From IMG/VR virus record IMGVR_UViG_2695420814_000010: a stretch of DNA of 50,942 nt; one strand, written 5' to 3'. Below are positions 28,971 to 49,706 of this stretch, piece after piece. The stretch is from a virus. Lineage: Duplodnaviria > Heunggongvirae > Uroviricota > Caudoviricetes. The translations under genes were made by a program, and so were the position numbers. Below the pieces are notes generated by a model. That model saw only the letters and a program-made list of their open reading frames with translations. It was not told the DNA's origin and ran no database searches. Every line of letters begins with the position of its first letter. Position 1 is the first letter of the stretch.

Positions 28971-28983
28971 GGAGGAGGTGGTT

Positions 28984-29322: not shown

Positions 29323-29942
29323 ATGATCATATTAAAAATGCTTTAACAGTCAGACCCGGCAGGGCTATCCCCGACGGGTCTCATTTTTGTAAATATATTG
29401 GTTCTACATTGACAGGAGACTTCAACCATAAGAAGTAATCTGAATACTTGAGCAATAAATTTACTTAAGATTAATGAGCGCACCTTGCCGGACAAAGATA
29501 AACCAAGGTAACACCTTTTTTCTAGCCAGTATGTAATCAATCAGAAAGCCGCTCCATAAGAACAACAGCAAGACAATAAATTGCCATTACAGCCGCAATA
29601 GCCAGCGCACATTTGAGAACCAGCACGACAACCCCCTGTATTAGACGCACACCAGTCCTGATAAATATGAGGCTGTCTCGTCAGTGATTCAATACAACTA
29701 TTGGGTATAGTTTCTGTGATTTTATTCTGTAGAAATGGAACACAACAACCAGTCACCACCAGCACTTCCTTAAATGCTCTAAGTCAGAAACAAGCCAACA
29801 TTTTAGTCCGCTTTGAGCGATCTGCAGACATTGCTAGCAGCCTTCTGTGTGAATTCTCAGGGAGCAGGTCGGCATAGCATCACGTTGAGGCTCTTACCCT
29901 ACTTGTTCACACCAACCCTAACTCCACAGACTGATTCATAAA

Positions 29943-30944
29943 TTAGTAATCTGCGTGTTTCGCACTTTTCAGAAATGCTTTCATATTTTCATTAGGTCGC
30001 TCAATTTCGAAGTTACTTCCATATAACTCTTGTAATTTTGGCCATAACTTACTTAATAACCCTCTCCTGCGATAAAATGGATGTATCCAAACGGTAGATA
30101 GGTACGGAGAATTTGCATTTGAATTGTTTATTGTGACCAGCCCAACTAAACATTGTCGATAACCACTATTATCCATTGATTGTATTTCTTCGACGAATGG
30201 ATACGCGATTACATCAGTCCAACCATGATCGGTTGTATCCCATTGCATTCCGTCATGACATTCCTTCGACTGATAGCGGCGTAAAGCTACACACGCGAGC
30301 TTTTGCCAATCTGGAGAATTAATTGTGATCTCTTCATCGTATGACGCGCCTATTGGAGCGGGTATTGGTCTGATTAATCCAGCATGGCATTCATCATAGA
30401 ACTTCATGTTTCCCTCAGAAACGTTGTGTACGTTGGGTTGCTCCATGTGTGCGCCATTCAAAAATAGCTCTGATAGTAGTGTATCTACACTGTAATCTTT
30501 ATTGATTATTGTCGGCTTAGAGTTTTTCTTATTAAGGCCGCGAGTAACGATTTTTTGATCAATGTTAACAACATGGAATAATCCGTCGGGGAGGCTAGCG
30601 AACCACGATGGGGCATCGGACCAGAATAGCATGCCTTTTGTACTTCTTAAGAGTTTAATTAAGTTAATACAAGCTTCTTCACTAGTCTTGCCGTTGATGC
30701 GAAGTATGTTAGGACTAAAGTAATATTCATCCATATCAGGGAATGCAGCTTCGCAAAACTCCTGTACATAATTTAGCACCTGGATTCTACAGAGATCATC
30801 ATAGCTGGTAATAACTAAGGGGGTATCTTCATTACTATTATGATTATCAATAATGCAATCTATAGCGAGACTTACTGCTTTGCGTATCACTTCAGTTGAA
30901 TCTAACGACTCTAAAAATTTTGTCTTTCGTGTGCGAATATCCAT
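29943..30944 (-). CDS. Hypothetical protein, gene 2 of a two-gene cassette; C-terminal GNAT-acetyltransferase-like motif
   Basis: 333-aa ORF 15 nt downstream of gene 1; C-terminal STVWIHPFYRRRGLLSKLWPKLQELYG resembles GNAT motif A; N-terminal ~230 aa has no recognisable motif. AT-rich codon usage. Confidence 0.55.
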   Translation of the reverse strand: MDIRTRKTKFLESLDSTEVIRKAVSLAIDCIIDNHNSNEDTPLVITSYDDLCRIQVLNYVQEFCEAAFPDMDEYYFSPNILRINGKTSEEACINLIKLLRSTKGMLFWSDAPSWFASLPDGLFHVVNIDQKIVTRGLNKKNSKPTIINKDYSVDTLLSELFLNGAHMEQPNVHNVSEGNMKFYDECHAGLIRPIPAPIGASYDEEITINSPDWQKLACVALRRYQSKECHDGMQWDTTDHGWTDVIAYPFVEEIQSMDNSGYRQCLVGLVTINNSNANSPYLSTVWIHPFYRRRGLLSKLWPKLQELYGSNFEIERPNENMKAFLKSAKHADY

Positions 30945-30959
30945 GTATGACCTGCGCTA

Positions 30960-31922
30960 TTAAAATTCATGAATGAACGGTTTGTCATCTGGTTGCAAAA
31001 TGGTGGTTTTATTCGTTGCTACATTTAAACTGTTGTAGAGCATAATTGCCAGGTTCGATGCATTTTCAATCAGCGTTTCAAGATCCTGGTCTGTAATCAC
31101 TACGAGGTTCCCTTCTTTATCCTTTCCACCACGATGCACTAAGTGATTTCGATTGAGGGTTGCCAATTCAATAGCTTCTATCGGACAGTCTTTTTGTACT
31201 TTTATATCGAATGTAGCTTCATAGCGGTCGATTACCTTTTTAGTGCTATGCCAGCTTGCACTGATCAAGTGTTCCTTGATTGACCTGATTAGCTCTCCCC
31301 TAATTTTCTCGATGGGTTCACCCTTGAAAGGCAACGCAGCAATATCTTTGCTTACTTTAAATTCAGTCTTACCTTTTTCTATACAATTGGCTATGTAGAC
31401 ATCATCTTTCTCTATAGAATTAATGAATAGCTCAACATAAAGCGTTTCCAAAGCTGTAATAACATTCGTGTAGAGCAAACTAAGCAAGTGGTTTTTTTGC
31501 TGTTGTTCAGTTTTATCTTTTGCAAGTTTTTTTATTTTATCGATATTATCAATGAATTTTAAATACGGATTACCGGAAGACGTTACAGCGTCGTAGATAT
31601 CATCATCGTACCAATCATCTATATTATTTGAGTTTCCAGACCAGTCAAAACATTGTGTTTGTAATTCATCTACTAATTCCTCAATATACTCAGATTTAAC
31701 ATATTGACCGAAGATGGATTGTAGTTCTTCGCTCGCATCATACGGCCCGCCATATATGTAAGCATAGCCACCTTCTCTACTTTCATACGGACAAGCATTT
31801 GCCGGATCTTCAAAGTTTTCAAAGAACCAGTTTTTCATTACTTCGAGTTGATCTTTTTTGCTTATGTATTTTAAAGATTTTAGTGGAACTTTCTTTCCAT
31901 TAACCTCGAAAACAATTTTCAC
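30960..31922 (-). CDS. Hypothetical protein, gene 1 of a two-gene cassette; possible HEPN-like R-x4-H motif
   Basis: Track ORF 30960..32051; preferred start is GTG at 31922 (MKIVFEVNGKK...) after AAGGGAG and downstream of an extended -10 promoter. C-terminal NRNHLVHRGG fits R-N-x3-H. About 320 aa, AT-rich. Confidence 0.55.
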   Translation of the reverse strand: MKIVFEVNGKKVPLKSLKYISKKDQLEVMKNWFFENFEDPANACPYESREGGYAYIYGGPYDASEELQSIFGQYVKSEYIEELVDELQTQCFDWSGNSNNIDDWYDDDIYDAVTSSGNPYLKFIDNIDKIKKLAKDKTEQQQKNHLLSLLYTNVITALETLYVELFINSIEKDDVYIANCIEKGKTEFKVSKDIAALPFKGEPIEKIRGELIRSIKEHLISASWHSTKKVIDRYEATFDIKVQKDCPIEAIELATLNRNHLVHRGGKDKEGNLVVITDQDLETLIENASNLAIMLYNSLNVATNKTTILQPDDKPFIHEF

Positions 31923-31955
31923 GATGTAACGCTCCCTTGTATCAATTGCGCAACT

Positions 31956-31964
31956 ATTATACCA
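31956..31964 (-). promoter_or_regulatory. Extended -10 promoter element (TGGTATAAT) upstream of the two-gene cassette
   Basis: Minus strand TGgTATAAT, about 30 nt upstream of the GTG start; a TTGACA hexamer lies further upstream near 32076..32081. Confidence 0.4.
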
Positions 31965-32120
31965 CAGCGAAATACAGGGCATAACCTGCCTCCTTAAACT
32001 AACATACCATGAGCCAGCAATGTCCGCTATTGGCACAAAGCGGACAACCACGCTAGCTCTCCCCTGTGCCAGAAAAATGTCAATTTACATATGAACTAAT
32101 GCTCTTTGATCTAGTAACGT

Positions 32121-32552
32121 CTATAAATACCGAAGATTTCCTTGATAAAATGCCAGTACACGTTTCATAACTTCACTCTTCCGGCACTCGCGACAGATTA
32201 TGTTCTGACGCCTGTCATAGCGGCGTATTTCTCCGTCTGGTAATGACCAGATAAGGTCAGGATCAACCACAACCGTTTTTTTCACCTTTGCCCTGGATAG
32301 TTTTTTGCGGGCGTTTTTCCAATCCTTACGAGCCTGTTCAGACGGGAATAACCCATAGCCAGAGTTGTATACATCGCCACTGGCAACCAACTCTCTGGCA
32401 AGAATGCTCATCAGATATCTTGTCGCACCTGTCTTGGCCTCCAGTTGCCTTAACGTCTCGCGCCCACTCTGGCGTACCAACTCAACAACCTGCTCCTTAA
32501 TTTTTTCACGCTCTTCCTGTGTAAAAACTTTTGCCATAAGCGCCTCCGGCAA
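32121..32552 (-). CDS. Conserved phage protein with N-terminal winged-helix-like region and CxxC motif
   Basis: 143-aa ORF; close paralogue of 37391..37813 (shared GDVYNSGYGLFPSEQARKDW...DPDLIWSLPDGEIRRYDRR.NIICRECRKSE). Confidence 0.45.
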   Translation of the reverse strand: MPEALMAKVFTQEEREKIKEQVVELVRQSGRETLRQLEAKTGATRYLMSILARELVASGDVYNSGYGLFPSEQARKDWKNARKKLSRAKVKKTVVVDPDLIWSLPDGEIRRYDRRQNIICRECRKSEVMKRVLAFYQGNLRYL

Positions 32553-33314
32553 TCACTTTTCCGACACAATACGACTGGAGGAATCGACAATCTGTCGGAC
32601 AATATCCCGGTGCTTGTTCAGCTCCCGCAGCGCGGCGCAGACTCGCTCCCACTTCTGGACATGATTTTTCGCCCGACGCAGTTCGCGGTTTGCCATATGC
32701 AGCGATGGTAAAACTAGGTCATCCGCTTGCGTTTCAGTAAACGATGGCAGCGACTGCACAATGTCCGCCACAGTTTCTGTTTTAATATCTTCCTGTGTTG
32801 CCGCTTCCTGTACTGGTAACGCAACACCGGCTGGCTGAGGAAAGGCTTTACCATCAGTTTCCGCTACCGATGCAGCTTTCGGCTCTGCTGGTAAATTATC
32901 GCCCGGCATGCAGTAACGAAATTTACTGTTCTGGTTTACGCGAATCAGGCGTCCTTTGCTGATTGCCATTGCCAGCGTTGAAGCAACTTTGCGGGATGTT
33001 GTACCGAACAGCGTAGCCAGTTCATCCGCCGTTTGTGGTCCGCGTTGTTCAATCGTCGCGGTTAAATCGCACTCTGAGATTTTCACTACAGTTGCCGTGG
33101 TGGTTTCTTCCGGCAGTTCTGCCTGCATTGGCTGTTCCTGCTGAACGTTGTTATCAGCCACACGCCAGGTGTACGCGCTTTTATCAACGAAACCAGCTTT
33201 TTTCAGTTCCCATAGTTCGTTCAGCACTTCTTCACGACTGATATCAAGTCGCGCAGCAAGTTCTATGGATGTGGCTTTTCCCATTGCTTTCAGTGCGTCA
33301 AAAACAGTCTCCAT
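32553..33314 (-). CDS. Winged-helix DNA-binding phage protein (DUF1627-like, tentative)
   Basis: Track ORF 32553..33365; likely start [43 protein letters not shown] (HTH) at 33314. Confidence 0.45.
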
Positions 33315-33336
33315 AAAAATTTCCTCCCGGTAAAAA

Positions 33337-33738
33337 TTACTTCTCAATTCCTGGCTGGACGACATTCGGACGCCAGCTCTCCCAGTTAAAATTCACCCAT
33401 CGCCCGCCGTTCATGGTCATGCGATCCATAATCCGCTCGCCGAGCAATGTTTTCATGGCCTCATAGTTCAGGTTTGTCAGCATCCCCACGCTGCGCATCG
33501 ACGCTGTCCGGCGATCAACAATCTGGTGCAGCACCACCTGCTCGTTTTTCGTCTCGCGCTGAATGCCAATTTCATCAAGAACCAGCAGATCCACTTCGCA
33601 TAGTTCCCGCAAAAATTTTTCGCCTGACTGCCCATCGTCATAGCTGGCGTGCAGGGCACTCATAACATCAGCCACGGTAACCACAATCACTGTCTGACCG
33701 TCTTTCAGCAGGCGATTCCCGATAGCTGCCGCTAAGTG
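33337..33738 (-). pseudogene. ydaV: DnaC-like replication protein YdaV, C-terminal fragment ending at an N-marked junction
   Basis: Encodes ...VVTVADVMSALHASYDDGQ...[12 protein letters not shown]; 33483..33738 matches 40549..40803 as far as compared by eye; sequence breaks at n (33739) into IS-internal sequence. Confidence 0.5.
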
Positions 33739-33739
33739 N

Positions 33740-34867
33740 TGAAAATCAACTTTCGATCAGTGAAGGCGCTTCCCGATTATCTCTTCCTGAAGGCACTTTA
33801 GGACAATGGGTTACCGCCGCCAGAAAAGGGCTCGGTACTCCTGGTTCCCGCACGGTGGCTGAACTGGAATCTGAAATTCTGCAACTGCGTAAGGCGTTAA
33901 ATGAAGCTCGCCTTGAGCGAGATATATTAAAAAAAGCAACAGCGTATTTTGCACAGGAGTCGCTGAAAAATACGCGTTAATCGAACAATGGCGACAACAA
34001 TTTCCCATTGAAGCGATGTGTCAGGTATTTGGTGTATCCAGGAGCGGTTATTACAACTGGGTACAGCATGAACCCTCAGACAGAAAACAAAGTGATGAGC
34101 GGCTAAAACTGGAGATTAAGGTGGCACATATCCGCACTCGCGAAACATATGGAACCCGGCGGCTCCAGACGGAGCTGGCAGAGAATGGCATCATCGTTGG
34201 TCGTGACCGACTGGCACGTCTTCGTAAGGAGCTAAGGCTACGCTGTAAGCAGAAACGCAAGTTCAGAGCGACTACGAACTCGAACCACAATCTGCCAGTT
34301 GCGCCAAATCTGCTGAACCAGACGTTCGCTCCTACAGCACCAAATCAGGTCTGGGTGGCGGACCTGACGTATGTTGCCACACAGGAGGGATGGTTGTACC
34401 TCGCTGGCATCAAAGATGTTTATACGTGCGAAATTGTCGGCTACGCCATGGGAGAGCGCATGACAAAAGAGCTGACAGGTAAAGCCCTGTTTATGGCGCT
34501 CAGGAGCCAGCGCCCACCTGCCGGGCTAATCCACCACTCTGATCGAGGTTCACAGTACTGCGCATACGATTACCGGGTCATACAGGAGCAGTCTGGTCTG
34601 AAAACATCAATGTCGCGTAAAGGTAACTGTTACGACAACGCTCCGATGGAAAGCTTCTGGGGAACGCTGAAAAATGAGAGCCTGAGCCACTATCGTTTTA
34701 ATAACCGGGATGAAGCCATCTCAGTAATACGGGAATACATTGAGATTTTCTACAATCGTCAGCGTCGTCACTCTCGTCTGGGGAATATCTCCCCGGCAGC
34801 CTTCAGGGAAAAATATCATCAGATGGCTGCTTAAAAAAAGAACAAATGGTAGTGTCCGCTATTGCCA
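33740..34867 (+). mobile_element. IS3-family (IS600-like) element, copy 1, lacking about 125 bp of the left end
   Basis: Matches 39384..40511 of the complete copy; begins inside orfA immediately after an n; right end ...GTGTCCGCTATTGCCA at 34867. Confidence 0.8.
34016..34834 (+). CDS. IS3-family transposase OrfB (DDE integrase domain), copy 1
   Basis: 272-aa ORF identical to 39660..40478; DDE-type catalytic region (WVADLTYV...HHSDRGSQY...NAPMESFW). Confidence 0.85.
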   Translation: MCQVFGVSRSGYYNWVQHEPSDRKQSDERLKLEIKVAHIRTRETYGTRRLQTELAENGIIVGRDRLARLRKELRLRCKQKRKFRATTNSNHNLPVAPNLLNQTFAPTAPNQVWVADLTYVATQEGWLYLAGIKDVYTCEIVGYAMGERMTKELTGKALFMALRSQRPPAGLIHHSDRGSQYCAYDYRVIQEQSGLKTSMSRKGNCYDNAPMESFWGTLKNESLSHYRFNNRDEAISVIREYIEIFYNRQRRHSRLGNISPAAFREKYHQMAA

Positions 34868-34868
34868 G

Positions 34869-35184
34869 TACACCTCAATTGCTCTGCGGCTTCGCTCAGA
34901 GCTGGCGTATGTTCCCGGCCTACTGATTCACACAGGTAATCAACGAAACCGGACACCAGTTTTCGTTCGCGAGGCGTGATCGCCCCACCGACCGGAGTCC
35001 AGTAATCGAAACCCAGTTGCAGGAGTTTGAAAAAACGCTTGTGGAATGCGTAGTTACACACACGCTTAAAGTCTGCGTGTATCCACTCACCTATTTTGAT
35101 TTGATGCAGAAAATCGCAACTCTCCGGCGTCGCCGGGAGAAGTAATCCGGAAGAGGTTTGTTTGACCAGTTGTATATGTGCCAT
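34869..35184 (-). pseudogene. IS-truncated paralogue of the nin-region gene 27571..28170
   Basis: Starts MAHIQLVKQTSSGLLLPATPESCDF at 35184, about 95% identical to 27860..28170, and runs into the IS right end at 34868. Confidence 0.6.
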
Positions 35185-35222
35185 CGGCTTTCTCCGGTGG
35201 CACGGTGTTACACAGCAGGAGT

Positions 35223-35510
35223 TCAATCCTGCTCAAGATTGTAGATGAGTTTATTCTTCAGCAAAAGCAGAAAACCAGCCTTAAAACCAATCTCTTTCAA
35301 AACCCGTAATGATGTGACAAATTCGTCCTCACGCAAAATAAAACCGTCCGTCAGAAGTCCATTACAAAAATAAAATAACACAGCACCGCTCTTCCTTTGT
35401 TGAGATTGCAAACATCTAATGCGGCAATGGCTGACAATCGCTCCATTCTCAACGCGCACAGCATAGAGGCCATTTTCACTAAAAATTTCACGCAATTCTT
35501 CGATTTTCAT
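35223..35510 (-). CDS. Hypothetical small protein
   Basis: 95-aa ORF between the hok locus and the truncated nin gene; no recognisable motif. Confidence 0.3.
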   Translation of the reverse strand: MKIEELREIFSENGLYAVRVENGAIVSHCRIRCLQSQQRKSGAVLFYFCNGLLTDGFILREDEFVTSLRVLKEIGFKAGFLLLLKNKLIYNLEQD

Positions 35511-35635
35511 CTTCAGAATCCTTCCAGATAAATAGCTCTCCCCTGTTCGGGGTCCATCCCTCTTCTCCCTGCGCGCTACTTAAGTGAGTCGATTCTATCT
35601 GCGAAGGTGCGCGAATCAAATTCACCGGAAATAAA

Positions 35636-35684
35636 CAACAAAAAACCCGCCGAAACGCTGAGAGATCACAGCGATGGGCGGGTT
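35636..35684 (-). terminator. Structured 3' end / terminator of hok mRNA
   Basis: Minus strand CCCGCC...GGCGGG stem with inner CGCTG/CAGCG stem, followed by TTTTTTGTTG. Confidence 0.4.
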
Positions 35685-35759
35685 AAGTGCGGGTGCGTTG
35701 AGGATGCCTGACACATCAGAGGTGGGCGGGGATGGGATCAGCTCCCCGCCCGGTCACTC

Positions 35760-35915
35760 TTACTTCCTGGATTCGTAGTCTACGAAGACAGCGACCTCCG
35801 TCTGGCCGGTTCGGATTCGTACCTCACAGAGGTCTTTCCTCGTTACCAGTGCCGTCACTATGACGGTTAAACAGATGACGATCAGGGCGATTAACATCGC
35901 CTTTTGCTGCTTCAT
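35760..35915 (-). CDS. hok: Hok/Gef family type I toxin
   Basis: MKQQKAMLIALIVICLTVIVTALVTRKDLCEVRIRTGQTEVAVFVDYESRK (51 aa) after AAGGAG; an in-frame upstream extension (to 35972) may correspond to a mok-like leader. Confidence 0.8.
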   Translation of the reverse strand: MKQQKAMLIALIVICLTVIVTALVTRKDLCEVRIRTGQTEVAVFVDYESRK

Positions 35916-36142
35916 AGCCTGCTTCTCCTTGCCTTTCGGCATGTAAGAGGCTAACCTACATGTGCAAAGCATGAAATTGGCCTCAGATTAATGTTAAGCG
36001 TCTTGCCGGACGCGTAATGTTAACTGGGGCTTTTCTCTATCTGCCTTTTGGTGTTCATGCCTGAAGCAGATAGCCTCAAGCACCCGCAGTCATTCTACTT
36101 ACCTCGCCAATATGAAATCAATCAGAAAGGTGCCCCATAAAA

Positions 36143-36829
36143 TCACTCCTTCTCTTCTTTACCGTAGTGGAGTTGACCAATTTTGATAAGAGGGCGTCCC
36201 TGAGATTTGCGGTGTAGATTGGTATCGCGCAGAGAATACACACAGCCACAATATTCCTGCTGATAGAATTTTTCGCGCTTGCTGATTTCAATCATACGGG
36301 ACGAGCCGCCCTGCTTGCGCCAGTTATAATCCCAGTACACCATGCCCGGATAATGCGCGACGGCTCGCCGCCCACAGTCGTTAACCTGCTGCATATTTTT
36401 CCAGCGTGAAATGCCCAGTGAACTGCTGATCACACTGAAACCATTTTCAGCGGCGTACAGCGCTGTCCGCTCAAAACGCATGTCAAAACACATGGTGCAA
36501 CGGATCCCTCGTTCGGGCTCCCATTCCATTCCTTTGGCTCGTTCAAACCAGTTGTCTGTGTCGTAATCAGCATCAATAAACGGCACGCCGTGTTGTTCAG
36601 CAAAGCGAATATTCTCATCCTTACGAATTAAATACTCTTTCTGAGGATGAATGTTCGGGTTGTAGAAAAAGATGGTGTAGTCGATTCCCGAGGCCTGAAG
36701 CGCCTCCATCACCTCACCGGAACATGGAGCACAGCAAGAGTGCAGTAGTAGTTTGTTTGCCCCGTTTGGGAGCTCCAATTTGGGCCGTTTGAAATCAGCA
36801 ACTGTCATAAATATGTTTATTGGGGTCAT
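36143..36829 (-). CDS. DUF208 / QueH-like protein (epoxyqueuosine reductase family, tentative)
   Basis: 228-aa ORF with [11 protein letters not shown] near the N-terminus, FFYNPNIHP, and C-terminal QEYCGC, motifs recalled from the QueH family. Confidence 0.5.
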
Positions 36830-36976
36830 AAAAATATCAAAGAGTGTAGCATTAGAACGGGGCTATCGGAAACAGATGTGTGACTGCTCCCCGCCCTTTC
36901 GGGTGGTCTCCTGATGATTTGAGGGTGCAGAAATCCCTCCGGTTAAGGATTAAATTTTTAACAGTGCTAAATTTAA

Positions 36977-37333
36977 TTATTCAGTTCTGGATTTTGTCGC
37001 CCTGCGTATCCGCGCTTTCGCGTTACGCTCAATCTGTATCAGCTTTTCTATATTTCTCCGCCTTTCCTGTTCCTCCTGGCGCAATAGCCTTACATCATCT
37101 GCCAGTCTGGTTTCTCTTTTTGCCACAGAGAGCATCCAGTCAAACGGCTCCACAACCGCACCGCAGATTTTACAGCGGACCTGACGCTCTTTTTCGTCAA
37201 CCCGTACAGAGGCGTGATGGCAATATGGTCTTTCCGATGGCTCATAAAGAAAATTAACCTGATTACGAGGGTCATCCTCTTTTACCGGAAATAAAACGAT
37301 ATTGCTTAACTCATCTTCTGGTTTTATTTCCAT
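36977..37333 (-). CDS. Hypothetical protein with Cys-His cluster
   Basis: Track ORF 36977..37390; likely start MEIKPEDELSN at 37333; motif CHHASV...CKICGAV. Confidence 0.35.
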   Translation of the reverse strand: MEIKPEDELSNIVLFPVKEDDPRNQVNFLYEPSERPYCHHASVRVDEKERQVRCKICGAVVEPFDWMLSVAKRETRLADDVRLLRQEEQERRRNIEKLIQIERNAKARIRRATKSRTE

Positions 37334-37390
37334 GCTCCTCTCCTTTGATGCGAATGCCAGCGGTAATTGAAGCCTGATAGCTAATTTCAT

Positions 37391-37813
37391 TCACAGTATC
37401 GCCTCCTGAAAATTACCCTGATAGAAAGCCAGTACACGCTGCATAGCTTCGCTCTTCCGGCACTCGCGACAGATTATATTCAGGCGCCTGTCGTAGCGGC
37501 GTATTTCTCCGTCAGGTAATGACCAGATAAGGTCCGGATCAACAACAACCGGTTTCCTCACCTTTACTCTCGAGAGTTTTTTGCGGGCGCTTTGCCAGTC
37601 CTTGCGAGCCTGTTCAGACGGGAATAAGCCGTAGCCAGAATTATATACATCACCACTTGCGACCAGTTCTATGCATAAGCGACCGACAGACGCACGACTG
37701 ATACCTGTTTCATCTGACAACTGCCGAATCGTGACCCGACCGTCCTGATGCACGAGTTCCACAATTCGCGTCTTCAGTTCTTCCCGCTGTTCGGGAGTAA
37801 AAGGTTTCGCCAT
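37391..37813 (-). CDS. Conserved phage protein, paralogue of 32121..32552
   Basis: 140-aa ORF sharing the GDVYNSGYGLFPSEQARKDW and IICRECRKSE segments. Confidence 0.45.
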   Translation of the reverse strand: MAKPFTPEQREELKTRIVELVHQDGRVTIRQLSDETGISRASVGRLCIELVASGDVYNSGYGLFPSEQARKDWQSARKKLSRVKVRKPVVVDPDLIWSLPDGEIRRYDRRLNIICRECRKSEAMQRVLAFYQGNFQEAIL

Positions 37814-37827
37814 AAATCCTCCTGAAA

Positions 37828-38574
37828 CTACTTAACAACCCTCGAATGGCTAACATTCGGACGCCAGCTCTCCCAGTTAAAATTCACCCAGCGCCCGCCG
37901 TTCATGACCATGCGATCCATCACCCGCTCGCCGAGCAATGTTTTCATCACCTCATAGTTCAGGTTTGTCAGCATCCCCACGCTGCGCATCGACGCTGTCC
38001 GGCGATCAACAATCTGGTGCAGCACCACCTGCTCGTTTTTCGTCTCGCGCTGAATGCCAATTTCATCAAGAACCAGCAGATCCACTTCGCACAGCTCCCG
38101 CAAAAATTTTTCGCCTGACTGCCCGTCGTCATAGCTGGCGTGCAGGGCGCTCATAACATCAGCCACGGTAACCACAATCACTGTCTGACCGTCTTTCAGC
38201 AGGCGATTCCCGATAGCTGCCGCTAAGTGATTCTTCCCGGTACCAGGTTTTCCGCTGAACGCAAAATTTGTACACCCGGTCATCAGTTCATCGGCGATGG
38301 ATTTCGCCTGGCTTAACGCGTATCGCTGGCCGTCGTTCTGCACCTGGTAATTCGCAAACGAGCATTTACGGTGCAACGGCTGGATGCCTGAGCGATTCAG
38401 AATTTTTTCCACCCGCAACTGGCGATTCAGGCGGTTGATCTCCTCGCTACGTTTCTGGCCTTCAGCAAGTTGCCACTCGCGCCACTCCGCTACCGTTCTG
38501 AATGGGGCGGTTACATGTGGCGGGGTCAGTCGGCGGATGCGTTCCAGAACGCCGCCTGTCGCAATATTTTTCAT
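37828..38574 (-). CDS. DnaC-like replication protein (IstB-like AAA+ ATPase), YdaV-like, second copy
   Basis: 248-aa ORF with Walker A GKPGTGKNHLAAAIG and Walker B LLVLDEIG. Confidence 0.8.
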   Translation of the reverse strand: MKNIATGGVLERIRRLTPPHVTAPFRTVAEWREWQLAEGQKRSEEINRLNRQLRVEKILNRSGIQPLHRKCSFANYQVQNDGQRYALSQAKSIADELMTGCTNFAFSGKPGTGKNHLAAAIGNRLLKDGQTVIVVTVADVMSALHASYDDGQSGEKFLRELCEVDLLVLDEIGIQRETKNEQVVLHQIVDRRTASMRSVGMLTNLNYEVMKTLLGERVMDRMVMNGGRWVNFNWESWRPNVSHSRVVK

Positions 38575-38580
38575 GGTCCG

Positions 38581-39258
38581 TTACCCCCTGAAGCCTGGCG
38601 GGATCGCACTGTCCGGCAACGAGACGGTGTTAACCTGTCGGAGCAACGTCTCAGGCCGAACACCTTTCGGCGCGAACAGGCCCTGGTATTCATTGGCGAT
38701 GCTGTGTCGAATCACCTGCTCAGGTGTAAAACCCTGCTGACGGAATTTTTCCAGTTCCCGTATCGCCCCGTTAGCGCCCTGCTCCGTTCGAATCGGTTTT
38801 CGCAATGCCTGTCTGAACCGGACCCACTCATGCCAGAGTGTTTCCGGCAACCAATCGGGCAGCTCAATAGCCTCCGGCTCGAATTTTTTAGACGCTCGTT
38901 TTTGGCGAGGGGGAGATCAGTATTTAGATCTTCCTCTTCCTCTTCCTCTGGTAACGCTTTTTGATCCGTTTGTGTAACGCTGGCAGCGTTACCTTTTCGT
39001 TTCAGTTCGCGTATTTTTGTTACTCGCTCGTTTGTAACCGCCCGTTTTTTTTAGAGCTTTTTCCGTTATGACGTTCAAAGTTAGGTAGAGAAAGCCCTCC
39101 GTCATTTTCGACCAGCCATCCAACCTGAATTAACGCATCAGCAAAACCAGACATAAAAGTGATGCGATCTATTGCACTTTTTGTAACGCCGCGAGCGTTA
39201 CAATCTGCATTACCGTCTATCATTTGTTGATCCGCCCATGCCCAGAAGCGAATAACCT
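38581..39258 (-). pseudogene. Disrupted replication initiator / replisome organiser (YdaU-like C-terminus), abutting an IS end
   Basis: 38581..38850 encodes the same C-terminal domain as 41154..41420 (...WVRFRQALRKPIRTEQGANGAIRELEKFRQQGF...); the upstream part (to 39250) is in another frame and the locus ends at the IS left end (39259). Confidence 0.45.
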
Positions 39259-39321
39259 GAGGTAGCCTGAGTTTAACGGACACTCCTTCCTGAAATAGAA
39301 TGGCATCAGAAGGAGCTAATA

Positions 39322-39624
39322 ATGAGCAGAAAAACCCAACGTTACTCTAAAGAGTTCAAAGCCGAAGCTGTCAGAACGGTTCCTGAAAATCAACTTTCGA
39401 TCAGTGAAGGCGCTTCCCGATTATCTCTTCCTGAAGGCACTTTAGGACAATGGGTTACCGCCGCCAGAAAAGGGCTCGGTACTCCTGGTTCCCGCACGGT
39501 GGCTGAACTGGAATCTGAAATTCTGCAACTGCGTAAGGCGTTAAATGAAGCTCGCCTTGAGCGAGATATATTAAAAAAAGCAACAGCGTATTTTGCACAG
39601 GAGTCGCTGAAAAATACGCGTTAA
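39322..39624 (+). CDS. IS3-family transposase OrfA (HTH)
   Basis: 100-aa ORF; A7G slippery run at 39573..39580 allows a -1 shift into orfB to give the OrfAB fusion. Confidence 0.85.
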   Translation: MSRKTQRYSKEFKAEAVRTVPENQLSISEGASRLSLPEGTLGQWVTAARKGLGTPGSRTVAELESEILQLRKALNEARLERDILKKATAYFAQESLKNTR

Positions 39625-39659
39625 TCGAACAATGGCGACAACAATTTCCCATTGAAGCG

Positions 39660-40478
39660 ATGTGTCAGGTATTTGGTGTATCCAGGAGCGGTTATTACAA
39701 CTGGGTACAGCATGAACCCTCAGACAGAAAACAAAGTGATGAGCGGCTAAAACTGGAGATTAAGGTGGCACATATCCGCACTCGCGAAACATATGGAACC
39801 CGGCGGCTCCAGACGGAGCTGGCAGAGAATGGCATCATCGTTGGTCGTGACCGACTGGCACGTCTTCGTAAGGAGCTAAGGCTACGCTGTAAGCAGAAAC
39901 GCAAGTTCAGAGCGACTACGAACTCGAACCACAATCTGCCAGTTGCGCCAAATCTGCTGAACCAGACGTTCGCTCCTACAGCACCAAATCAGGTCTGGGT
40001 GGCGGACCTGACGTATGTTGCCACACAGGAGGGATGGTTGTACCTCGCTGGCATCAAAGATGTTTATACGTGCGAAATTGTCGGCTACGCCATGGGAGAG
40101 CGCATGACAAAAGAGCTGACAGGTAAAGCCCTGTTTATGGCGCTCAGGAGCCAGCGCCCACCTGCCGGGCTAATCCACCACTCTGATCGAGGTTCACAGT
40201 ACTGCGCATACGATTACCGGGTCATACAGGAGCAGTCTGGTCTGAAAACATCAATGTCGCGTAAAGGTAACTGTTACGACAACGCTCCGATGGAAAGCTT
40301 CTGGGGAACGCTGAAAAATGAGAGCCTGAGCCACTATCGTTTTAATAACCGGGATGAAGCCATCTCAGTAATACGGGAATACATTGAGATTTTCTACAAT
40401 CGTCAGCGTCGTCACTCTCGTCTGGGGAATATCTCCCCGGCAGCCTTCAGGGAAAAATATCATCAGATGGCTGCTTAA
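39660..40478 (+). CDS. IS3-family transposase OrfB
   Basis: 272-aa DDE-domain ORF; the -1 frame is open from the slippery site at about 39575. Confidence 0.85.
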   Translation: MCQVFGVSRSGYYNWVQHEPSDRKQSDERLKLEIKVAHIRTRETYGTRRLQTELAENGIIVGRDRLARLRKELRLRCKQKRKFRATTNSNHNLPVAPNLLNQTFAPTAPNQVWVADLTYVATQEGWLYLAGIKDVYTCEIVGYAMGERMTKELTGKALFMALRSQRPPAGLIHHSDRGSQYCAYDYRVIQEQSGLKTSMSRKGNCYDNAPMESFWGTLKNESLSHYRFNNRDEAISVIREYIEIFYNRQRRHSRLGNISPAAFREKYHQMAA

Positions 40479-40511
40479 AAAAAGAACAAATGGTAGTGTC
40501 CGCTATTGCCA

Positions 40512-40548
40512 NNNNNNNNNNNNNNNNNNNNNNNNNNNNNNNNNNNNN
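40512..40548. other. Run of 37 N (assembly gap) immediately after the IS right end
   Basis: Literal n characters in the sequence. Confidence 1.
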
Positions 40549-41147
40549 CCCACGCTGCGCATCGACGCTGTCCGGCGATCAACAATCTGGTGCAGCACCA
40601 CCTGCTCGTTTTTCGTCTCGCGCTGAATGCCAATTTCATCAAGAACCAGCAGATCCACTTCGCATAGTTCCCGCAAAAATTTTTCGCCTGACTGCCCATC
40701 GTCATAGCTGGCGTGCAGGGCACTCATAACATCAGCCACGGTAACCACAATCACTGTCTGACCGTCTTTCAGCAGGCGATTCCCGATAGCTGCCGCTAAG
40801 TGGTTCTTCCCGGTACCAGGTTTTCCGCTGAACGCAAAATTTGTACACCCGGTCATCAGTTCATCAGCGATGGATTTCGCCTGACTCAACGCGTATCGCT
40901 GCGCTTCGTTCTGCACCTGGTAATTCGAAAACGAGCATTTGCGGTGCAATGGCTGGATGCCAGAGCGATTCAGAATTTTTTCCACCCGCAACTGACGATT
41001 CTGACGGTTGATCTCCTCACAACGTTTCTGGCCTTCGGAAAGTTGCCACTCGCGCCACTCCGCTACCGTCTTGAATGGCGCGGTTACATGTGACGGGGCC
41101 AGTCTGCGGATACGTTCAAGAACGTCGCCTGTCGCAATATTTTTCAT
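40549..41147 (-). CDS. ydaV: DnaC-like replication protein YdaV (C-terminus lost in the N gap)
   Basis: MKNIATGDVLERIRRLAPSHV... with Walker A GKPGTGKNHLAAAIG; ORF runs into the N-run. Confidence 0.7.
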
Positions 41148-41153
41148 GGTCAG

Positions 41154-42011
41154 TTACCCCCTGAAGCCTGGCGGGATCGCACTATCCGGTAACGAGACGG
41201 TGTTAACCTGTCGGAGTAACGTCTCAGGTCGAACACCTTTCGGCGCGAACAAGCCCTGGTATTCATTGGCGATGCTGTGTCGAATCACCTGCTCAGGTGA
41301 AAAACCCTGCTGGCGGAATTTTTCCAGCTCCCGTATCGCCCCGTTAGCGCCCTGCTCCGTTCGAATCGGTTTTCGCAATGCCTGGCGAAATTCAACCCAC
41401 TCACGCCAAAGCGAGACAGAAATCCAGTTCGGCAAAGCAATATCCAGAGGGTCAAACTTTTTGACACCTCGATTCCCCCGGGGGGGATTTAGGGGGGGAT
41501 CTGTTTTTAGATCTTTATCTGTATCTTTATTAGTTGCCTTTGTGTTGACATCATGTTCAAACACCACTTCAACATCTGTTTGAACACCTGTTAAATTTCT
41601 CTCTTGTTTTGTTTGAACATCTGCTTCCTTTCTGCTTCTTCTGGCCTGAACAGATGCTTTTCCTGCGGCTGATTTTTTGGTTAATTTTTCCCTGACTGAT
41701 GCCAGATCTTCCTCAATCCGAAGATGCACCCATTCCTCGCCGTTATCGCAAAAAAACTCCTGCAAGGATGGTTCAACATCAGCCCATCGCTCGTTAGTCA
41801 GACGGGCAATTTTTGCCAGCCTGTTTTTAGGTATTGGCTTTCCTGTTTGCCAGTAATTGAACATCAGCAACAAATACGCACCATGCTCCTCTGCTGACAA
41901 ATGCATGGTGTCAGCCAGGTAATCAGCTATGTACAGTTGCATGTATGGTAATGCGGCCATAATTGCCCCGTATGATGCTGCCCGGTGGCTTAGAATAAGC
42001 ACAAACAGCAT
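41154..42011 (-). CDS. ydaU: Replication initiator / replisome organiser YdaU-like
   Basis: 285-aa ORF; N-terminal ...YMQLYIADYLADTMHLSAEEHGAYLLLMFNYWQTGKPIP, conserved C-terminal domain shared with 38581..38850. Confidence 0.65.
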   Translation of the reverse strand: MLFVLILSHRAASYGAIMAALPYMQLYIADYLADTMHLSAEEHGAYLLLMFNYWQTGKPIPKNRLAKIARLTNERWADVEPSLQEFFCDNGEEWVHLRIEEDLASVREKLTKKSAAGKASVQARRSRKEADVQTKQERNLTGVQTDVEVVFEHDVNTKATNKDTDKDLKTDPPLNPPRGNRGVKKFDPLDIALPNWISVSLWREWVEFRQALRKPIRTEQGANGAIRELEKFRQQGFSPEQVIRHSIANEYQGLFAPKGVRPETLLRQVNTVSLPDSAIPPGFRG

Positions 42012-42023
42012 GGAAACTTTTGC

Positions 42024-42446
42024 TTAATGAACAATGACAGAATCGTCGGAAGACCCGCCGCCGCTGAAATGCGCTTTCCGGTAAACGGCTTGGACTGCAT
42101 CATCATGCGCATCAATTGCCGTACTTAACGCTTCCTGCGCCGCCAGTAATGCACGGCGTTCCAGGGTATCGAAGATGCAGAGTCGGTGACGCAGCTCGCG
42201 CGGAAGGATTGCCAGAATTGCTGGGATCAGCTTCTGAATTTTTTCTCTTTGCGTTTTCGTTTCACCTTTCAACCAACGGTGATAGATATTCTGCTGATTA
42301 TTCCAGTCCTTGCCTGGTACCAGGGGCAATTCGCCGCCCCCCTGGCGCAGATATTCTTCAGTAATGGCATTGGCTACCCATGCCTGCCCTTTTTCGGCTG
42401 CCAGGGCTAACAACACTGACTCGATGTGCTCATGCTTGATTTTCAT
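42024..42446 (-). CDS. ydaT: YdaT-like protein
   Basis: 140-aa ORF MKIKHEHIESVLLALAAEKGQAWVANAITEEYLRQ..., matching the recalled Rac YdaT in length and sequence. Confidence 0.65.
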   Translation of the reverse strand: MKIKHEHIESVLLALAAEKGQAWVANAITEEYLRQGGGELPLVPGKDWNNQQNIYHRWLKGETKTQREKIQKLIPAILAILPRELRHRLCIFDTLERRALLAAQEALSTAIDAHDDAVQAVYRKAHFSGGGSSDDSVIVH

Positions 42447-42697
42447 GAATCAACTCCCATCAGCTTTTTCGTAGTAGTTTTATTTCTGCCAATAGTTAAA
42501 ATTACATCAGCAGAAAATAATCCGTTTGATGCATGAGCGATTTTTTCAGCGTAATTTGTTTCGCCGGTATATTCTGTGCGAGGCAATTTTCCGTTATCCA
42601 TCCATTTGTAGATTGCTCTTTGGCTGACACCACAAACGTCGGCCACAACAGAAACGCGAACAGTTTTGATTACATCTTCAAGTGTTTTCTGGTTCAT
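42443..42697 (-). CDS. Cro-like HTH regulator (YdaS-like)
   Basis: From Met25 of track ORF 42443..42769: MNQKTLEDVIKTVRVSVVADVCGVSQRAIYKWMDNGKLP (HTH); upstream alternative starts possible; divergent from racR. Confidence 0.55.
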   Translation of the reverse strand: MNQKTLEDVIKTVRVSVVADVCGVSQRAIYKWMDNGKLPRTEYTGETNYAEKIAHASNGLFSADVILTIGRNKTTTKKLMGVDS

Positions 42698-42758
42698 ATC
42701 ACCCTCACAATGTGAACTTTGAGTACATGCTATAACAGAACTGACAGTACATTCAAGA

Positions 42759-43196
42759 GTGAATATCATTGAACTTATGGTTCATGAAGATAAAGCGCGT
42801 AAAGAGTTCGCCAGTAGGCTTGCGCTAGCCTGTGAAAACGCTGGTTATGAACAACATGGAAGGCAGGCAGAAATTGCCCGTCGAATGAAATTAACACCAA
42901 AAGCGGTTAGCAAATGGTTTAATGGCGAAACAATTCCTCGCCGAGAGAAATTAAGGGAATTAGCAACACTCATTGGAACAACACCAACCTATCTTTTGGG
43001 AGAGGATACAGAAGAAAGTGGACAGGTACGTTTCTATCAGGAGTTAAATCCAAGACAAAAAATCATCATTGACCTTCTGGACGAGCTCCCTGACAGTGAG
43101 ACAGATGAACTTTTAAAAACTCTTGAGGAGAAAAAACAGAAGTACAATGCAATTTACGAAGAGCTAGCACGAAAGAAAAAACAAAAAGCCTCTTAA
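42759..43196 (+). CDS. racR: CI-like prophage repressor RacR (XRE-family HTH)
   Basis: 145-aa ORF with HTH RQAEIARRMKLTPKAVSKWFNGE; divergently arranged against the cro-like gene with a 61-bp intergenic region. Confidence 0.7.
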   Translation: MNIIELMVHEDKARKEFASRLALACENAGYEQHGRQAEIARRMKLTPKAVSKWFNGETIPRREKLRELATLIGTTPTYLLGEDTEESGQVRFYQELNPRQKIIIDLLDELPDSETDELLKTLEEKKQKYNAIYEELARKKKQKAS

Positions 43197-43486
43197 ACCA
43201 GCATAAATCCGGTAGCGTCCCCCTCCGGGTTTGTGCTTCACTTTATCCCATCTCATTTTTTTACACACAAAATGTACTTATAGTACTTTACATCAATGAA
43301 CACAAAGTACATTATATACCTACCAACCCACCCCGCCCCACAGAACGCAGGGCAATACTTCGAGTTACCAGGCAGTGGTCAGGGGTTAAGTAGCCAGCCC
43401 GAGGCGTATGAACATGACGGCAGGGTTCAGATTTTGCAGTGCAGCAGGTTTCAGTTCCGCCACCCGGCGTTAAGGGGAGAGATAAG

Positions 43487-43621
43487 ATGGTGCATTACGA
43501 AGTAGTTCAGTATTTGATGGATTGTTGCGGTATCACTTACAACCAGGCTGTGCAGGCTTTACGCAGCAACGACTGGGATCTCTGGCAGGCAGAAGTCGCT
43601 ATACACAGCAACAAGATGTGA
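43487..43621 (+). CDS. ydaG: Small Rac protein YdaG-like
   Basis: MVHYEVVQYLMDCCGITYNQAVQALRSNDWDLWQAEVAIHSNKM (44 aa), internal start of track ORF 43439..43621. Confidence 0.5.
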   Translation: MVHYEVVQYLMDCCGITYNQAVQALRSNDWDLWQAEVAIHSNKM

Positions 43622-43631
43622 GATTCGCAAA

Positions 43632-43787
43632 ATGCAAAAAATCGACCTCGGCAACAACGAATCCCTGGTGTGCGGCGTGTTCCCCAACCAGGATGGAACG
43701 TTCACTGCCATGACGTATACCAAAAGCAAAACATTTAAAACCGAAACTGGTGCGCGCCGATGGTTGGAGAAGCACACAGTAAGCTAA
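43632..43787 (+). CDS. ydaF: Small Rac protein YdaF-like
   Basis: MQKIDLGNNESLVCGVFPNQDGTFTAMTYTKSKTFKTETGARRWLEKHTVS (51 aa); below the ORF-track cutoff. Confidence 0.5.
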   Translation: MQKIDLGNNESLVCGVFPNQDGTFTAMTYTKSKTFKTETGARRWLEKHTVS

Positions 43788-44272
43788 CGATTAAAACGTC
43801 TACTCCTGCTGTTCCAGAATAACTTCATAAAATGGGAGTATTTTTCGGTGACGAGATAATAAGAACAGTTTGCGCTATCACTCTGATGTTGAATGATGCC
43901 CTTCCGTTCTAATTTTTTCATAACCGGGTTACGGCAAGGAGAAGTGATAATAAGATTTCCTGTTTTAAGGAAATCTTTAAATACAGCGATTTCTTTCTCA
44001 GATAAACGAAGCAATACTCGTTGCTCTGGTAGTAATGAATAATGCTTTTGAATATGTGCTCGCAATCTTGAGAAGGAAATGGCGACCACGAAAGAAAAGG
44101 CAAAAACGATAATCTGAAAGAGCCAAGGTATTTCAGTATAAGCATTGAATGCGACAGTAAACTCTTTCGGTATCAGCCAGAGAGTGAGACCAAAAATGAT
44201 AATCGTATACATAAGTATTTCGAGTGGCTCGTTAGCAAAAAGTTTCAACAATGGAGTAAATACATCCAACAT
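43784..44272 (-). CDS. sieB: Superinfection exclusion protein B
   Basis: From Met42 of track ORF 43784..44395: MLDVFTPLLKLFANEPLEILMYTIIIFGLTLWLIPKEF..., 162 aa, membrane protein. Confidence 0.8.
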   Translation of the reverse strand: MLDVFTPLLKLFANEPLEILMYTIIIFGLTLWLIPKEFTVAFNAYTEIPWLFQIIVFAFSFVVAISFSRLRAHIQKHYSLLPEQRVLLRLSEKEIAVFKDFLKTGNLIITSPCRNPVMKKLERKGIIQHQSDSANCSYYLVTEKYSHFMKLFWNSRSRRFNR

Positions 44273-44713
44273 ATCAATAACTCTCAACTGTAAGGGTATT
44301 GAAATGTTAACACAAGCTCTCGCTGTAGGGGTATAGCCGAGACCACCGAAGCCCGGAGGTGGTGAAATAAAACCGGGCACAACACGAAGGCGCATTTCCG
44401 ATATCCATAAAGAGTCGGTCTTGTCTGTTAAATTTAAATGGTGGGAGTGCGCCTCCGGTTGTAAATAACGACATTGCTGTGTGTAGTCCTGGCGGCATCA
44501 GTTTTTTTCTTGAAGTTCGGCTGATGTCCGCCCTTTTTAAAGTGAATTTTGTGATGCGGTGAATGCGGCTAAGCGCACGTGGCACAGTTAAAAGTCATGT
44601 TAGTCCTTATTGGTTTGGGTGGGAAAGCCGACTGTAATTGTTAACTGGTTGCAGTCACCTGGAGGCACCAGGCACCGCATCAACAAAGTTCATTTGTAAA
44701 AATGGAGATAATT

Positions 44714-44935
44714 ATGATTGCACATCACTTCGGAACTGATGAAATACCACGTCAGTGTGTGACTCCTGGCGATTATGTTCTTCATGAAGGCCGGACATAT
44801 ATTGCCTCGGCAAACAATATTAAAAAGCGAAAACTATATATTCGTAACCTGACCACAAAAACATGCATTACTGACCGCATGATTAAAGTCTTCCTCGGTC
44901 GTGATGGTTTACCTGTAAAGGCGGAGTCATGGTGA
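44714..44935 (+). CDS. kilR: Killing protein KilR (cell-division inhibitor)
   Basis: [73 protein letters not shown] (73 aa). Confidence 0.8.
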
Positions 44936-45104
44936 TGACTAAGAAAATAAAATGTGCTTACCACCTTTGCAAAAAAGACGTTGAAGAAAGCAAAGCTATT
45001 GAAAGAATGCTTCACTTCATGCACGGGATTTTATCAAAAGACGAACCGAGAAAATATTGCAGTGAAGCTTGTGCCGAAAAAGACCAGATGGCACATGAAC
45101 TTTA
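44928..45104 (+). CDS. ydaE: Small Cys-rich protein YdaE-like
   Basis: M(V)[56 protein letters not shown]; ATG overlaps the kilR stop; below the ORF-track cutoff. Confidence 0.6.
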
Positions 45105-49705: not shown

Positions 49706-49706
49706 T

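Follow-up and report, generated by a model that had tools for sequence, protein, structure and literature searches.

Does the Rac-type prophage in the window, by which we mean the whole 50,942-nt stretch of IMG/VR virus record IMGVR_UViG_2695420814_000010, carry a second replication region bracketed by copies of IS600, or was a piece of DNA from elsewhere set down there during assembly? The preliminary description of this stretch offered both readings, and the sequence features that it reported for 33337-41147 are, small coordinate corrections aside, as it described them when examined by N-run scan, self-BLAST, Pfam and Rfam. Our answer is that the middle segment (c2) is very probably a contig that stems from a different locus in this Shigella sonnei-type genome and was wrongly scaffolded inside an intact ydaV gene. 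Directly observed are the overlap between the pieces on either side of it (c1 and c3) together with their direct join elsewhere, the true locus of c2 with its flanks, and the conflict in break points among sister drafts. The features concerned, with the evidence for each, are as follows.

33337-33738, minus strand: 3' part of ydaV copy A of the Rac-type prophage, end of c1 (collinearity with NCTC10444; 100% to gapless contigs L013 and L014)
33739, no strand: single N, at the scaffold junction judged false (N-run scan, copy comparison)
33740-34877, plus strand: left copy of IS600, IS positions 127-1264 (self-BLAST, alignment to full IS600)
34831-35184, minus strand: DUF1367 (nin-region) gene, truncated by IS600 at 34877/34878 (Pfam, exact-protein look-up)
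35223-35510, minus strand: small ORF, 95 aa (Pfam Rem, PF27490, in precomputed hits)
35760-36085, minus strand: hok toxin gene (35760-35972) and sok RNA match (35910-36085) (Pfam, Rfam)
36143-36829, minus strand: QueH (epoxyqueuosine reductase) gene (Pfam)
36977-37390, minus strand: ORF, 137 aa (weak zinc-ribbon match under the Pfam cut-off)
37391-37813, minus strand: DUF977 gene, copy B (Pfam)
37828-38574, minus strand: ydaV copy B, IstB/DnaA-type ATPase, intact, 248 aa (Pfam, self-BLAST)
38581-39257, minus strand: ydaU-like pseudogene of prophage B (comparison with an uninterrupted copy)
39258-40511, plus strand: right copy of IS600, IS positions 1-1254 of 1264 (Pfam, alignment to full IS600)
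40512-40548, no strand: gap of 37 N, concealing the join judged false (N-run scan, flanks in the gapless locus)
40549-41147, minus strand: 5' part of ydaV copy A, start of c3 (40549-40802 repeats 33485-33738)

The window contains exactly two runs of N, one of a single base (33739) and one of 37 (40512-40548), which split it into c1 (1-33738), c2 (33740-40511) and c3 (40549-50942); no base-level sequence spans either junction, and the Ns are the sole links. Repeats within the window, as found by self-BLAST, include 1128 bp of IS sequence at 100% (33740-34867 and 39384-40511) and 254 bp of ydaV copy A at 100% (33485-33738 and 40549-40802). Copies A and B of ydaV align at 97.1% (33362-33738 with 37853-38229) and 95.2% (40549-41384 with 37976-38811), the DUF1367 pair at 95.1% (27864-28170 with 34878-35184) and the DUF977 pair at 86.8% (32132-32389 with 37408-37665). 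The match noticed earlier by eye between the ydaV fragment and the start of c3 is real, though the identical stretch is the 254 bp just given and not the whole of 33337-33738.

That stretch is an overlap: c1 and c3 adjoin and overlap within a single Rac-type prophage at ttcA that nothing interrupts, and the real ydaV gene is 33337-33738 followed by 40803-41147. Uninterrupted copy A is read by c3 across the end of c1 (40802 into 40803) and by c1 across the start of c3 (33484 into 33485), and the shared 254 bp hold four variants specific to copy A, at 33601, 33604, 33634 and 33658. Along the intact NCTC10444 prophage, c1 aligns to 1-33739 at 99.54% and c3 to 33486-43879 at 99.97%. Many complete E. 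coli genomes have the direct c1-c3 sequence in one piece, 100% identical, and 1393 genomes have at least 80% coverage of it. Across 26553-33738 and 40549-46378 there is 100% identity with two gapless contigs, L013 (140 kb) and L014 (75 kb, 7 samples), and with 22 similar places; in L013 and L014 the 254 bp occur once, 33738 runs straight into 40803, and ydaV is intact. The pieces that flank c2 are, in other words, contiguous in gapless, near-identical sequence, as their overlap, these two contigs and NCTC10444 all attest, and the contigs supply the very observation that the preliminary description had named as deciding for a scaffolding artefact. As a relative of the E. coli Rac prophage (ydaT-ydaU-ydaV module, recET, sieB, intR at ttcA), c1 plus c3 is collinear with the Rac-type prophage of NCTC10444 from tail gene J to intR at 99.5-99.97% identity. 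The Rac of K-12 is defective, whereas the Rac type seen in the window retains head, tail, terminase and lysis genes, as annotated in NCTC10444.

Where, then, does c2 belong? Evidence on this point comes from gapless contigs retrieved separately from those, such as L013 and L014, that show the direct c1-c3 join. The reading frame of the truncated DUF1367 gene (DUF1367') continues into IS600, and an exact-protein look-up with this fusion ORF found the true locus. L004, L005, L007 and L008, the last being CP019689, the chromosome of S. sonnei 75/02 (PMC5447701), match c2 over its full 6,772 bp as a single piece at 99.97-99.985%; L009 and L011 do so at 99.7% with small indels. In these six gapless contigs or chromosomes c2 lies beside modC-gal, between an integrase fragment next to modC and ydaU-B'/ydaT/cro/cI, within a decayed lambdoid prophage adjoining modCBA-acrZ-modEF-galETK; the idea that an IS-mediated event genuinely inserted part of a second prophage into Rac fails here, as the flanks are different ones. 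Both IS600 copies are complete at this locus, with differing outer flanks, and in direct orientation they enclose a 4,381-bp remnant made up of DUF1367', a small ORF, hok/sok, queH, another small ORF, DUF977, ydaV-B and ydaU-B'. The bracketing of this segment by two direct copies is therefore real biology, as had been described, but not inside Rac, and the IS600-flanked mod-gal remnant is a real and ordinary structure, which public complete genomes already contain. Of 521 index blocks, 440 have the DUF1367'-IS fusion gene on contigs 2-5 kb long; the segment thus normally assembles alone. A search of 5,426 complete E. coli genomes with 300-bp queries over both IS600/segment junctions returned no record covering at least 80%, which is uninformative because that collection evidently lacks Shigella genomes carrying the junctions.

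Pfam and Rfam identify the content between the IS copies as DUF1367', hok/sok, QueH, DUF977, an IstB/DnaA-type ATPase (ydaV) and a decayed ydaU-like gene; our own Pfam scan of the ORF at 35223-35510 gave no match, and Rfam over 33000-41500 gave none beyond sok. The B copy of ydaV is 95-97% identical to copy A, with exact common runs of 142, 80 and 62 bp. The lesions in ydaU-B are a 10-bp deletion, a T6 to T8 frameshift and the severing of its 5' end by the IS600 insertion.

The two IS copies are unremarkable members of the IS3 family. The full element, taken from the same site in gapless L007, is 1264 bp long, with ends TGAGGTAGCCTG... and ...CAGTACACCTCA, and its terminal inverted repeats are imperfect (TGAGGT...ACCTCA), as for an element of about 1.26 kb running from TG to CA. 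The right copy contains orfA (39322-39624; PF01527, HTH_Tnp_1) and, in the -1 frame, orfB (39660-40478; PF13276, PF00665 (rve) and PF13683), with an A7G slippery site at 39573. This arrangement of 0 and -1 frames with a slippery A-run is that of IS3-family elements, the frameshifting itself being predicted, and RefSeq labels a 99.4%-identical copy in L002 'IS3-like element IS600 family transposase, programmed frameshift'. In orfs, slippery site, inverted repeats, 3-bp duplication and full length, the copies resemble the IS600 of Shigella and E. coli, and nothing notable sets them apart. The left copy was correctly called partial, but its true end is 34877 instead of 34867 and its start is IS position 127; it is cut solely by the contig end. 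The right copy is a direct one, as described, yet starts at 39258 rather than 39259 and is not complete: it stops at IS position 1254, so that the supposed complete IS ending exactly at the 37-N gap lacks 10 bp of its end. What truly adjoins this IS end, ACCTTCCCTAATGCGG... from the 5' end of ydaU-B, is found nowhere in the window.

Target-site duplications at the true IS ends, which the preliminary description had proposed to look for, are present at the right copy only. There the site reads GAATAACC, IS, ACCTTCCC, against the empty site GAATAACCTTCCC in L001, which gives ACC; the right IS600 entered ydaU-B by simple insertion and duplicated 3 bp. To its right in gapless genomes, the flank (ACCTTCCC...) carries on the B prophage, 99.6% identical to L001. 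No duplication accompanies the left copy (AAC / ATT), as expected after an IS-mediated deletion or recombination, which points to a putative secondary joint of deletion or rearrangement. A composite transposon, which the two direct copies of one IS flanking cargo-like genes (hok/sok, queH) might suggest, was rejected on duplication and flanks. The outer ends of the unit in gapless genomes, ...GGCCGAAC and ACCTTCCC, carry no identical short duplication, and ACC belongs to the right IS alone; every gapless contig retrieved has the block at the same mod-gal locus, the other 'sites' of the unit being N-bounded joins in drafts only; and an uninterrupted prophage (FDAARGOS_944) has sequence collinear with the cargo in the same relative position. 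The unit is a prophage remnant struck by IS copies, not a unit that moved.

How c2 came to lie in ydaV can be pictured from the junctions themselves. Remnant genes 87-97% identical to Rac genes, with exact runs of up to 142 bp, would have been the source of the trouble: because of this identity and these runs, read pairs may have falsely linked c2 to the Rac ydaV region, and the scaffolder would have nested c2 between c1 and c3. Read-based gap filling could then have added generic IS600 sequence to the ends of c2 and, to c1 and c3, ydaV sequence that belongs to the other, with extension presumably ending at bases where repeat copies disagree. The single N falls on the exact site of a ydaV-A/ydaV-B variant (G in copy A, at 40803; A in copy B, at 38230), and the left IS600 starts just after IS position 126, which is C/T polymorphic among IS600 copies in complete genomes; on either side of the single N, the sequence stops one base short of a repeat-variant site, as expected if read-based extension halts at ambiguous bases. 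At the left end of c3 (equivalent to 33485) and the right end of c2 (IS position 1254), no variant site was identified. At IS position 789 a copy-specific T is present in three gapless genomes but the right IS of the window has C, consistent with a consensus drawn from reads of many IS copies. Judging by the accession series, the pipeline was probably of the Velvet + SSPACE + GapFiller type. SSPACE and GapFiller are greedy and may make false joins, and 299 S. sonnei assemblies are listed in the report that documents them (Page et al., 2016, PMC5320598). Reads of the Holt S. sonnei set average 59 bp (PMC7373316), shorter than the exact runs common to remnant and Rac genes. The window resembles false joins of that greedy type (PMC5320598) in its N-only junctions, in neighbours that overlap and are contiguous in gapless assemblies, in an interposed contig that ends in a multi-copy IS and maps elsewhere, and in break points that vary between sister assemblies; it differs in that its software is deduced, and the single N on a paralogue variant site is an additional detail.

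It could be supposed instead that the arrangement is genuine in the source isolate of assembly GCA_001253355.1, the remnant having been moved or copied into the Rac ydaV by IS600 transposition or recombination, with ydaV split and 254 bp duplicated. Three drafts of related isolates do all place c2 in the Rac replication module, S. sonnei is a species in which IS600 shows high activity (PMC7373316), and the mod-gal locus is rearranged in some gapless genomes. Yet the two sister drafts put c2 at other points, L006 at 42052 followed by 11 N and IS position 137, and L015 at 33357 followed by N and IS position 289, and L006 additionally holds the direct c1-c3 join; with three different break points in three drafts, the junctions are therefore not biological. 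Both junctions of the window are nothing but N, and the left one would join ydaV to IS position 127, which is no IS end, so the remark that a passage through a single n into IS-internal sequence is not a transposition junction was sound. IS3-family duplications are of 3 bp, like the ACC at the right copy, not of 254 bp; no composite-transposon duplication is seen where the module ends in gapless genomes (outer flanks AAC / ACC); the supposed break point of each of c1 and c3 is crossed by the other; and gapless contigs identical to the window have no insertion. We consider a genuine structure highly improbable, and a rearrangement private to the isolate is argued against by the internal overlap and by comparison with relatives. 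An unusual IS600-associated event, in which the remnant was inserted or duplicated in the Rac ydaV with a 254-bp target duplication and an IS-internal junction, would imply a non-canonical rearrangement mechanism and is barely credible. A third IS600 inserted in ydaV-A was also considered and rejected, since c1 continues past the end of c3, and c3 past that of c1.

c2 begins and ends with the same 1,128 bp, as is frequent for circular molecules in assemblies, which invites the thought that c2 is a 5,645-bp circle (one IS600 plus the 4,381-bp segment) produced by IS600 x IS600 recombination and assembled as a linear contig with overlapping ends, or such a circle re-integrated through ydaV homology. 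Identical ends are equally explained by both contig ends extending into a multi-copy IS, however, and in gapless chromosomes the IS copies are distinguishable by 1-2 bases and by the chromosomal DNA that flanks each of them, which makes the segment a linear part of the chromosome; this idea deserves almost no weight. A re-integrated circle was rejected outright, as it predicts the order ydaV (A/B hybrid)-ydaU-B'-IS600-DUF1367'...DUF977-B-ydaV (B/A hybrid), whereas the window has a different order and no hybrid ydaV. Unlikely, though less far-fetched, is an artefact of another origin, in which contigs were ordered by homology to a reference genome, without paired-read scaffolding and gap filling, and the ydaV/ydaU-like genes drew c2 to Rac. 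The only similarity of c2 to its neighbours is the 87-97% paralogy, which would also mislead a homology orderer, but gaps of 1, 11 and 37 N and IS starts at 127, 137 and 289 in the three drafts resemble read-based gap filling and not fixed spacers, extension stops at polymorphic bases, and the accession series agrees with that of S. sonnei drafts credited to Holt et al., with the Velvet/SSPACE/GapFiller pipeline documented for 299 S. sonnei assemblies (PMC5320598).

With c2 read as a misplaced contig, the IS600-bracketed 'second replication region' in Rac is an artefact and no new mobile structure, and the main value of the result is data hygiene. The stretch from 33.3 to 41.2 kb is not to be annotated as Rac with a second replication module, hok/sok, queH or a disrupted ydaV. 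At least two public sister drafts (CXIN01000012.1 and CWXR01000008.1) show the same misplacement at other break points, and pangenome, prophage-typing and IS-mapping work based on these scaffolds could describe prophage mosaics that are spurious. The real biology underneath is that of a lambdoid remnant eroded by IS600 at the mod-gal locus of S. sonnei, as is ordinary where a species carries hundreds of IS copies. The remnant itself varies among gapless genomes, L005 having another outer flank at the right IS and L012 extra IS600 copies, and IS600-mediated rearrangement at the mod-gal locus therefore does occur in nature.

Exactly two N runs interrupt the scaffold, a single base at 33739 and a stretch of 37 at 40512-40548, and these delimit three pieces:

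1-33738, c1
33740-40511, c2
40549-50942, c3

In a self-comparison, the two ends of c2 are identical over 1,128 bases (33740-34867 and 39384-40511), the last 254 bases of c1 (33485-33738) recur unchanged as the first of c3 (40549-40802), and the ydaV gene within c2 (ydaV-B, 37828-38574) shares 95-97% identity with ydaV-A, the copy split over c1 and c3. The N-run count and this comparison bear out the repeats, IS copies and N junctions of the preliminary description, with adjusted limits for the two IS copies:

to 34877, left IS600, starting at IS position 127
39258 to the N gap, right IS600, ending at IS position 1254

The left copy thus has a new end, and the right copy, which had been called complete, halts 10 bp short of the full 1264 bp.

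Taken together, c1 and c3 are a Rac-type prophage, a relative of Rac. They align to positions 1-33739 and 33486-43879, respectively, of a single uninterrupted prophage of E. coli NCTC10444, and the two alignments overlap there by precisely the 254 duplicated bases; the order in that prophage is tail gene J, terminase, trkG, lysis, nin-like genes, DUF977, DUF1627, ydaV, ydaU, ydaT, repressors, sieB, kilR, recET and intR at ttcA. A 1,321-bp construct in which 33738 is joined to 40803 is found in one piece, at 100% identity, in many complete genomes. The direct run from 33738 into about 40804 that had been proposed as the sign of misassembly exists, as 33738 into 40803, in two gapless contigs, L013 (140 kb) and L014 (75 kb, seven samples), which are 100% identical to 26553-33738 and 40549-46378, contain the 254-base stretch once, and are the places listed, with 22 further similar places beyond them. 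Moreover, c3 crosses the point at which c1 stops and c1 crosses the point at which c3 starts, and the shared 254 bases hold four variants (33601, 33604, 33634 and 33658) that tell copy A from copy B. Given the collinearity with NCTC10444, the direct joins elsewhere and this mutual read-through, ydaV-A is intact in the sequenced DNA, with nothing between 33738 and 40803.

The true home of c2 lies elsewhere. Over the 4,381 bases between its IS copies (34878-39258), c2 is 99.6% identical to an unbroken part of an intact lambdoid prophage in E. coli FDAARGOS_944, with the gene order DUF1367, small ORF, hokD, queH, small ORF, DUF977, ydaV and ydaU-like gene. A search of 5,426 complete E. coli genomes found neither IS600/segment junction; the junction-specific fusion protein, in which the truncated DUF1367 frame runs on into the left IS600 (34831-35184), is recorded in hundreds of assemblies. 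The whole of c2 (6,772 bases) matches in one piece, at 99.97-99.985%, the gapless sequences L004, L005, L007 (CP022457) and L008 (CP019689, Shigella sonnei 75/02; PMC5447701), and it matches L009 and L011 at 99.7% with small indels. In all of these except L005 the context is an integrase fragment beside modCBA-acrZ-modEF-galETK, IS600, the remnant, IS600, and then the 5' end of the ydaU-like gene, ydaT', cro and a cI-like repressor. The DNA next to the right IS600 at this locus, continuing across the element from 39100-39257, reads ACCTTCCCTAATG...; this real right-hand neighbour is missing from the window, which holds only a 91.7% ydaT paralogue. As lambdoid prophages eroded by IS elements go, the remnant is ordinary, in a species (S. 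sonnei) whose chromosomes have a median of 286 detected IS insertions (PMC7373316).

The elements themselves agree with IS600 and the IS3 family in length, inverted repeats, 3-bp duplication and the arrangement of orfA and orfB in the 0 and -1 frames with an A7G site, and the IS in the window is 99.4% identical to an annotated IS600. At the right copy, the empty site in FDAARGOS_944, GAATAACCTTCCC, corresponds to a filled site GAATAACC-IS600-ACCTTCCC with a 3-bp duplication, and judged from these sequences this copy is a simple insertion. The left copy has no duplication (AAC / ATT) and connects a nin-region gene with the integrase fragment, and is therefore the scar of a deletion or rearrangement.

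The apparent composite inside Rac is not real, and the placement of c2 there is an artefact. L010, a stretch of the draft CXFC01000008.1 (GCA_001253355.1), covers 20,354 bp of the window at 100% identity, both N runs included; the window therefore stems from this draft or one identical to it. Two sister drafts likewise put c2 in the Rac replication module, at other points. CXIN01000012.1 (6347-12950) passes from 42052 through 11 N to IS position 137; this scaffold carries part of ydaU-A/ydaV-A twice and also contains c1 joined directly to c3. CWXR01000008.1 (62-5960) passes from 33357 through N to IS position 289. Three different all-N junctions in three assemblies are the pattern expected of paralogy-driven scaffolding noise, and the false placements in the two sister drafts look like a systematic problem of the assembly series. 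On either side of the single N at 33739, the sequence halts one base short of a site that varies between repeat copies: for c1 this is a G in copy A against an A in copy B, and for c2 it is IS position 126, either C or T among the IS600 copies of complete genomes. At IS position 789 the right copy in the window carries the common base and three gapless genomes carry a copy-specific T, which fits an IS sequence assembled from the pooled reads of many IS copies. In 440 of 521 index blocks the contigs bearing the fusion gene measure only 2-5 kb, so that ordinary short-read assemblies leave the segment stranded on a contig of its own. The practical result is a caution about this scaffold and its sister assemblies.

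As to how the artefact arose, a mechanism of the SSPACE/GapFiller type is likely. Some S. sonnei drafts of the CX accession series are attributed to Holt et al. 2012, whose S. sonnei reads averaged 59 bp (PMC7373316). A Velvet, SSPACE and GapFiller pipeline was used on 299 S. sonnei assemblies; scaffold joins receive N gaps that are then filled iteratively, and both SSPACE and GapFiller are greedy and capable of false joins (Page et al., PMC5320598). The exact runs common to ydaV-A and ydaV-B (142, 80 and 62 bp) all exceed the 59-bp mean, and the Rac and remnant paralogues of DUF1367 (27864-28170 and 34878-35184, 95%) and DUF977 (32132-32389 and 37408-37665, 87%) add potential for cross-mapping. 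Read pairs that map to the wrong copy would tie c2 to the two contig ends at the break in ydaV-A; during gap filling c2 would then grow into IS600, and c1 and c3 into one another, until an ambiguous base or the gap-size estimate halted them.

Biological routes to the same arrangement were also weighed. A composite transposon failed the test for an outer duplication, and no second sequenced site was found. An excised circle of IS600 plus segment is unnecessary to account for the identical ends of c2, and its integration through ydaV homology would have produced another gene order, with ydaV hybrids of which there is no trace. A third IS600 within ydaV-A is ruled out by c1 and c3 reading through each other's ends. 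The mod-gal remnant does genuinely vary by IS600-mediated change among gapless genomes: in L005 the DNA past the right IS600 differs, GTGAGCTGCC..., and lies beside another IS3-family fragment (L005 ~4100-4700), and L012 (CP022459, 5363-8220) has two extra IS600 copies and is without the equivalent of 36967-38981. Because of this variation we retain a very small probability that a real event, specific to this isolate, placed c2 in Rac; false scaffolding is the reading that we adopt.

Decay within the remnant is evident in the ydaU-like pseudogene (38581-39257, minus strand), which relative to the intact FDAARGOS_944 copy has lost 10 bp between AGGGGGA repeats and has a T6 run lengthened to T8. 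Since c2 aligns gaplessly to L004, L005, L007 and L008, both lesions are present in these chromosomes, S. sonnei among them, and are real decay rather than sequencing error. The misplaced piece also carries:

35760-36085, minus strand, hok toxin gene (PF01848) with a full-length sok match (Rfam RF01794, 117 bits)

The sok match is called on the same strand as hok, and the two are a predicted type I toxin-antitoxin system belonging to the remnant prophage.

By the NCTC10444 annotation, the Rac-type prophage retains full head, tail, terminase and lysis modules and, by collinearity with the same prophage, cargo consisting of trkG and a DUF1971/TehB-like gene at 21700-23160 and 28985-29323. c1 shows 154 differences from the NCTC10444 prophage, 142 of them within 1-4000, in the tail-tip gene J, and the rest of the prophage (~40 kb) is ~99.97% identical; the clustering in gene J suggests a host-range module swapped by recombination.
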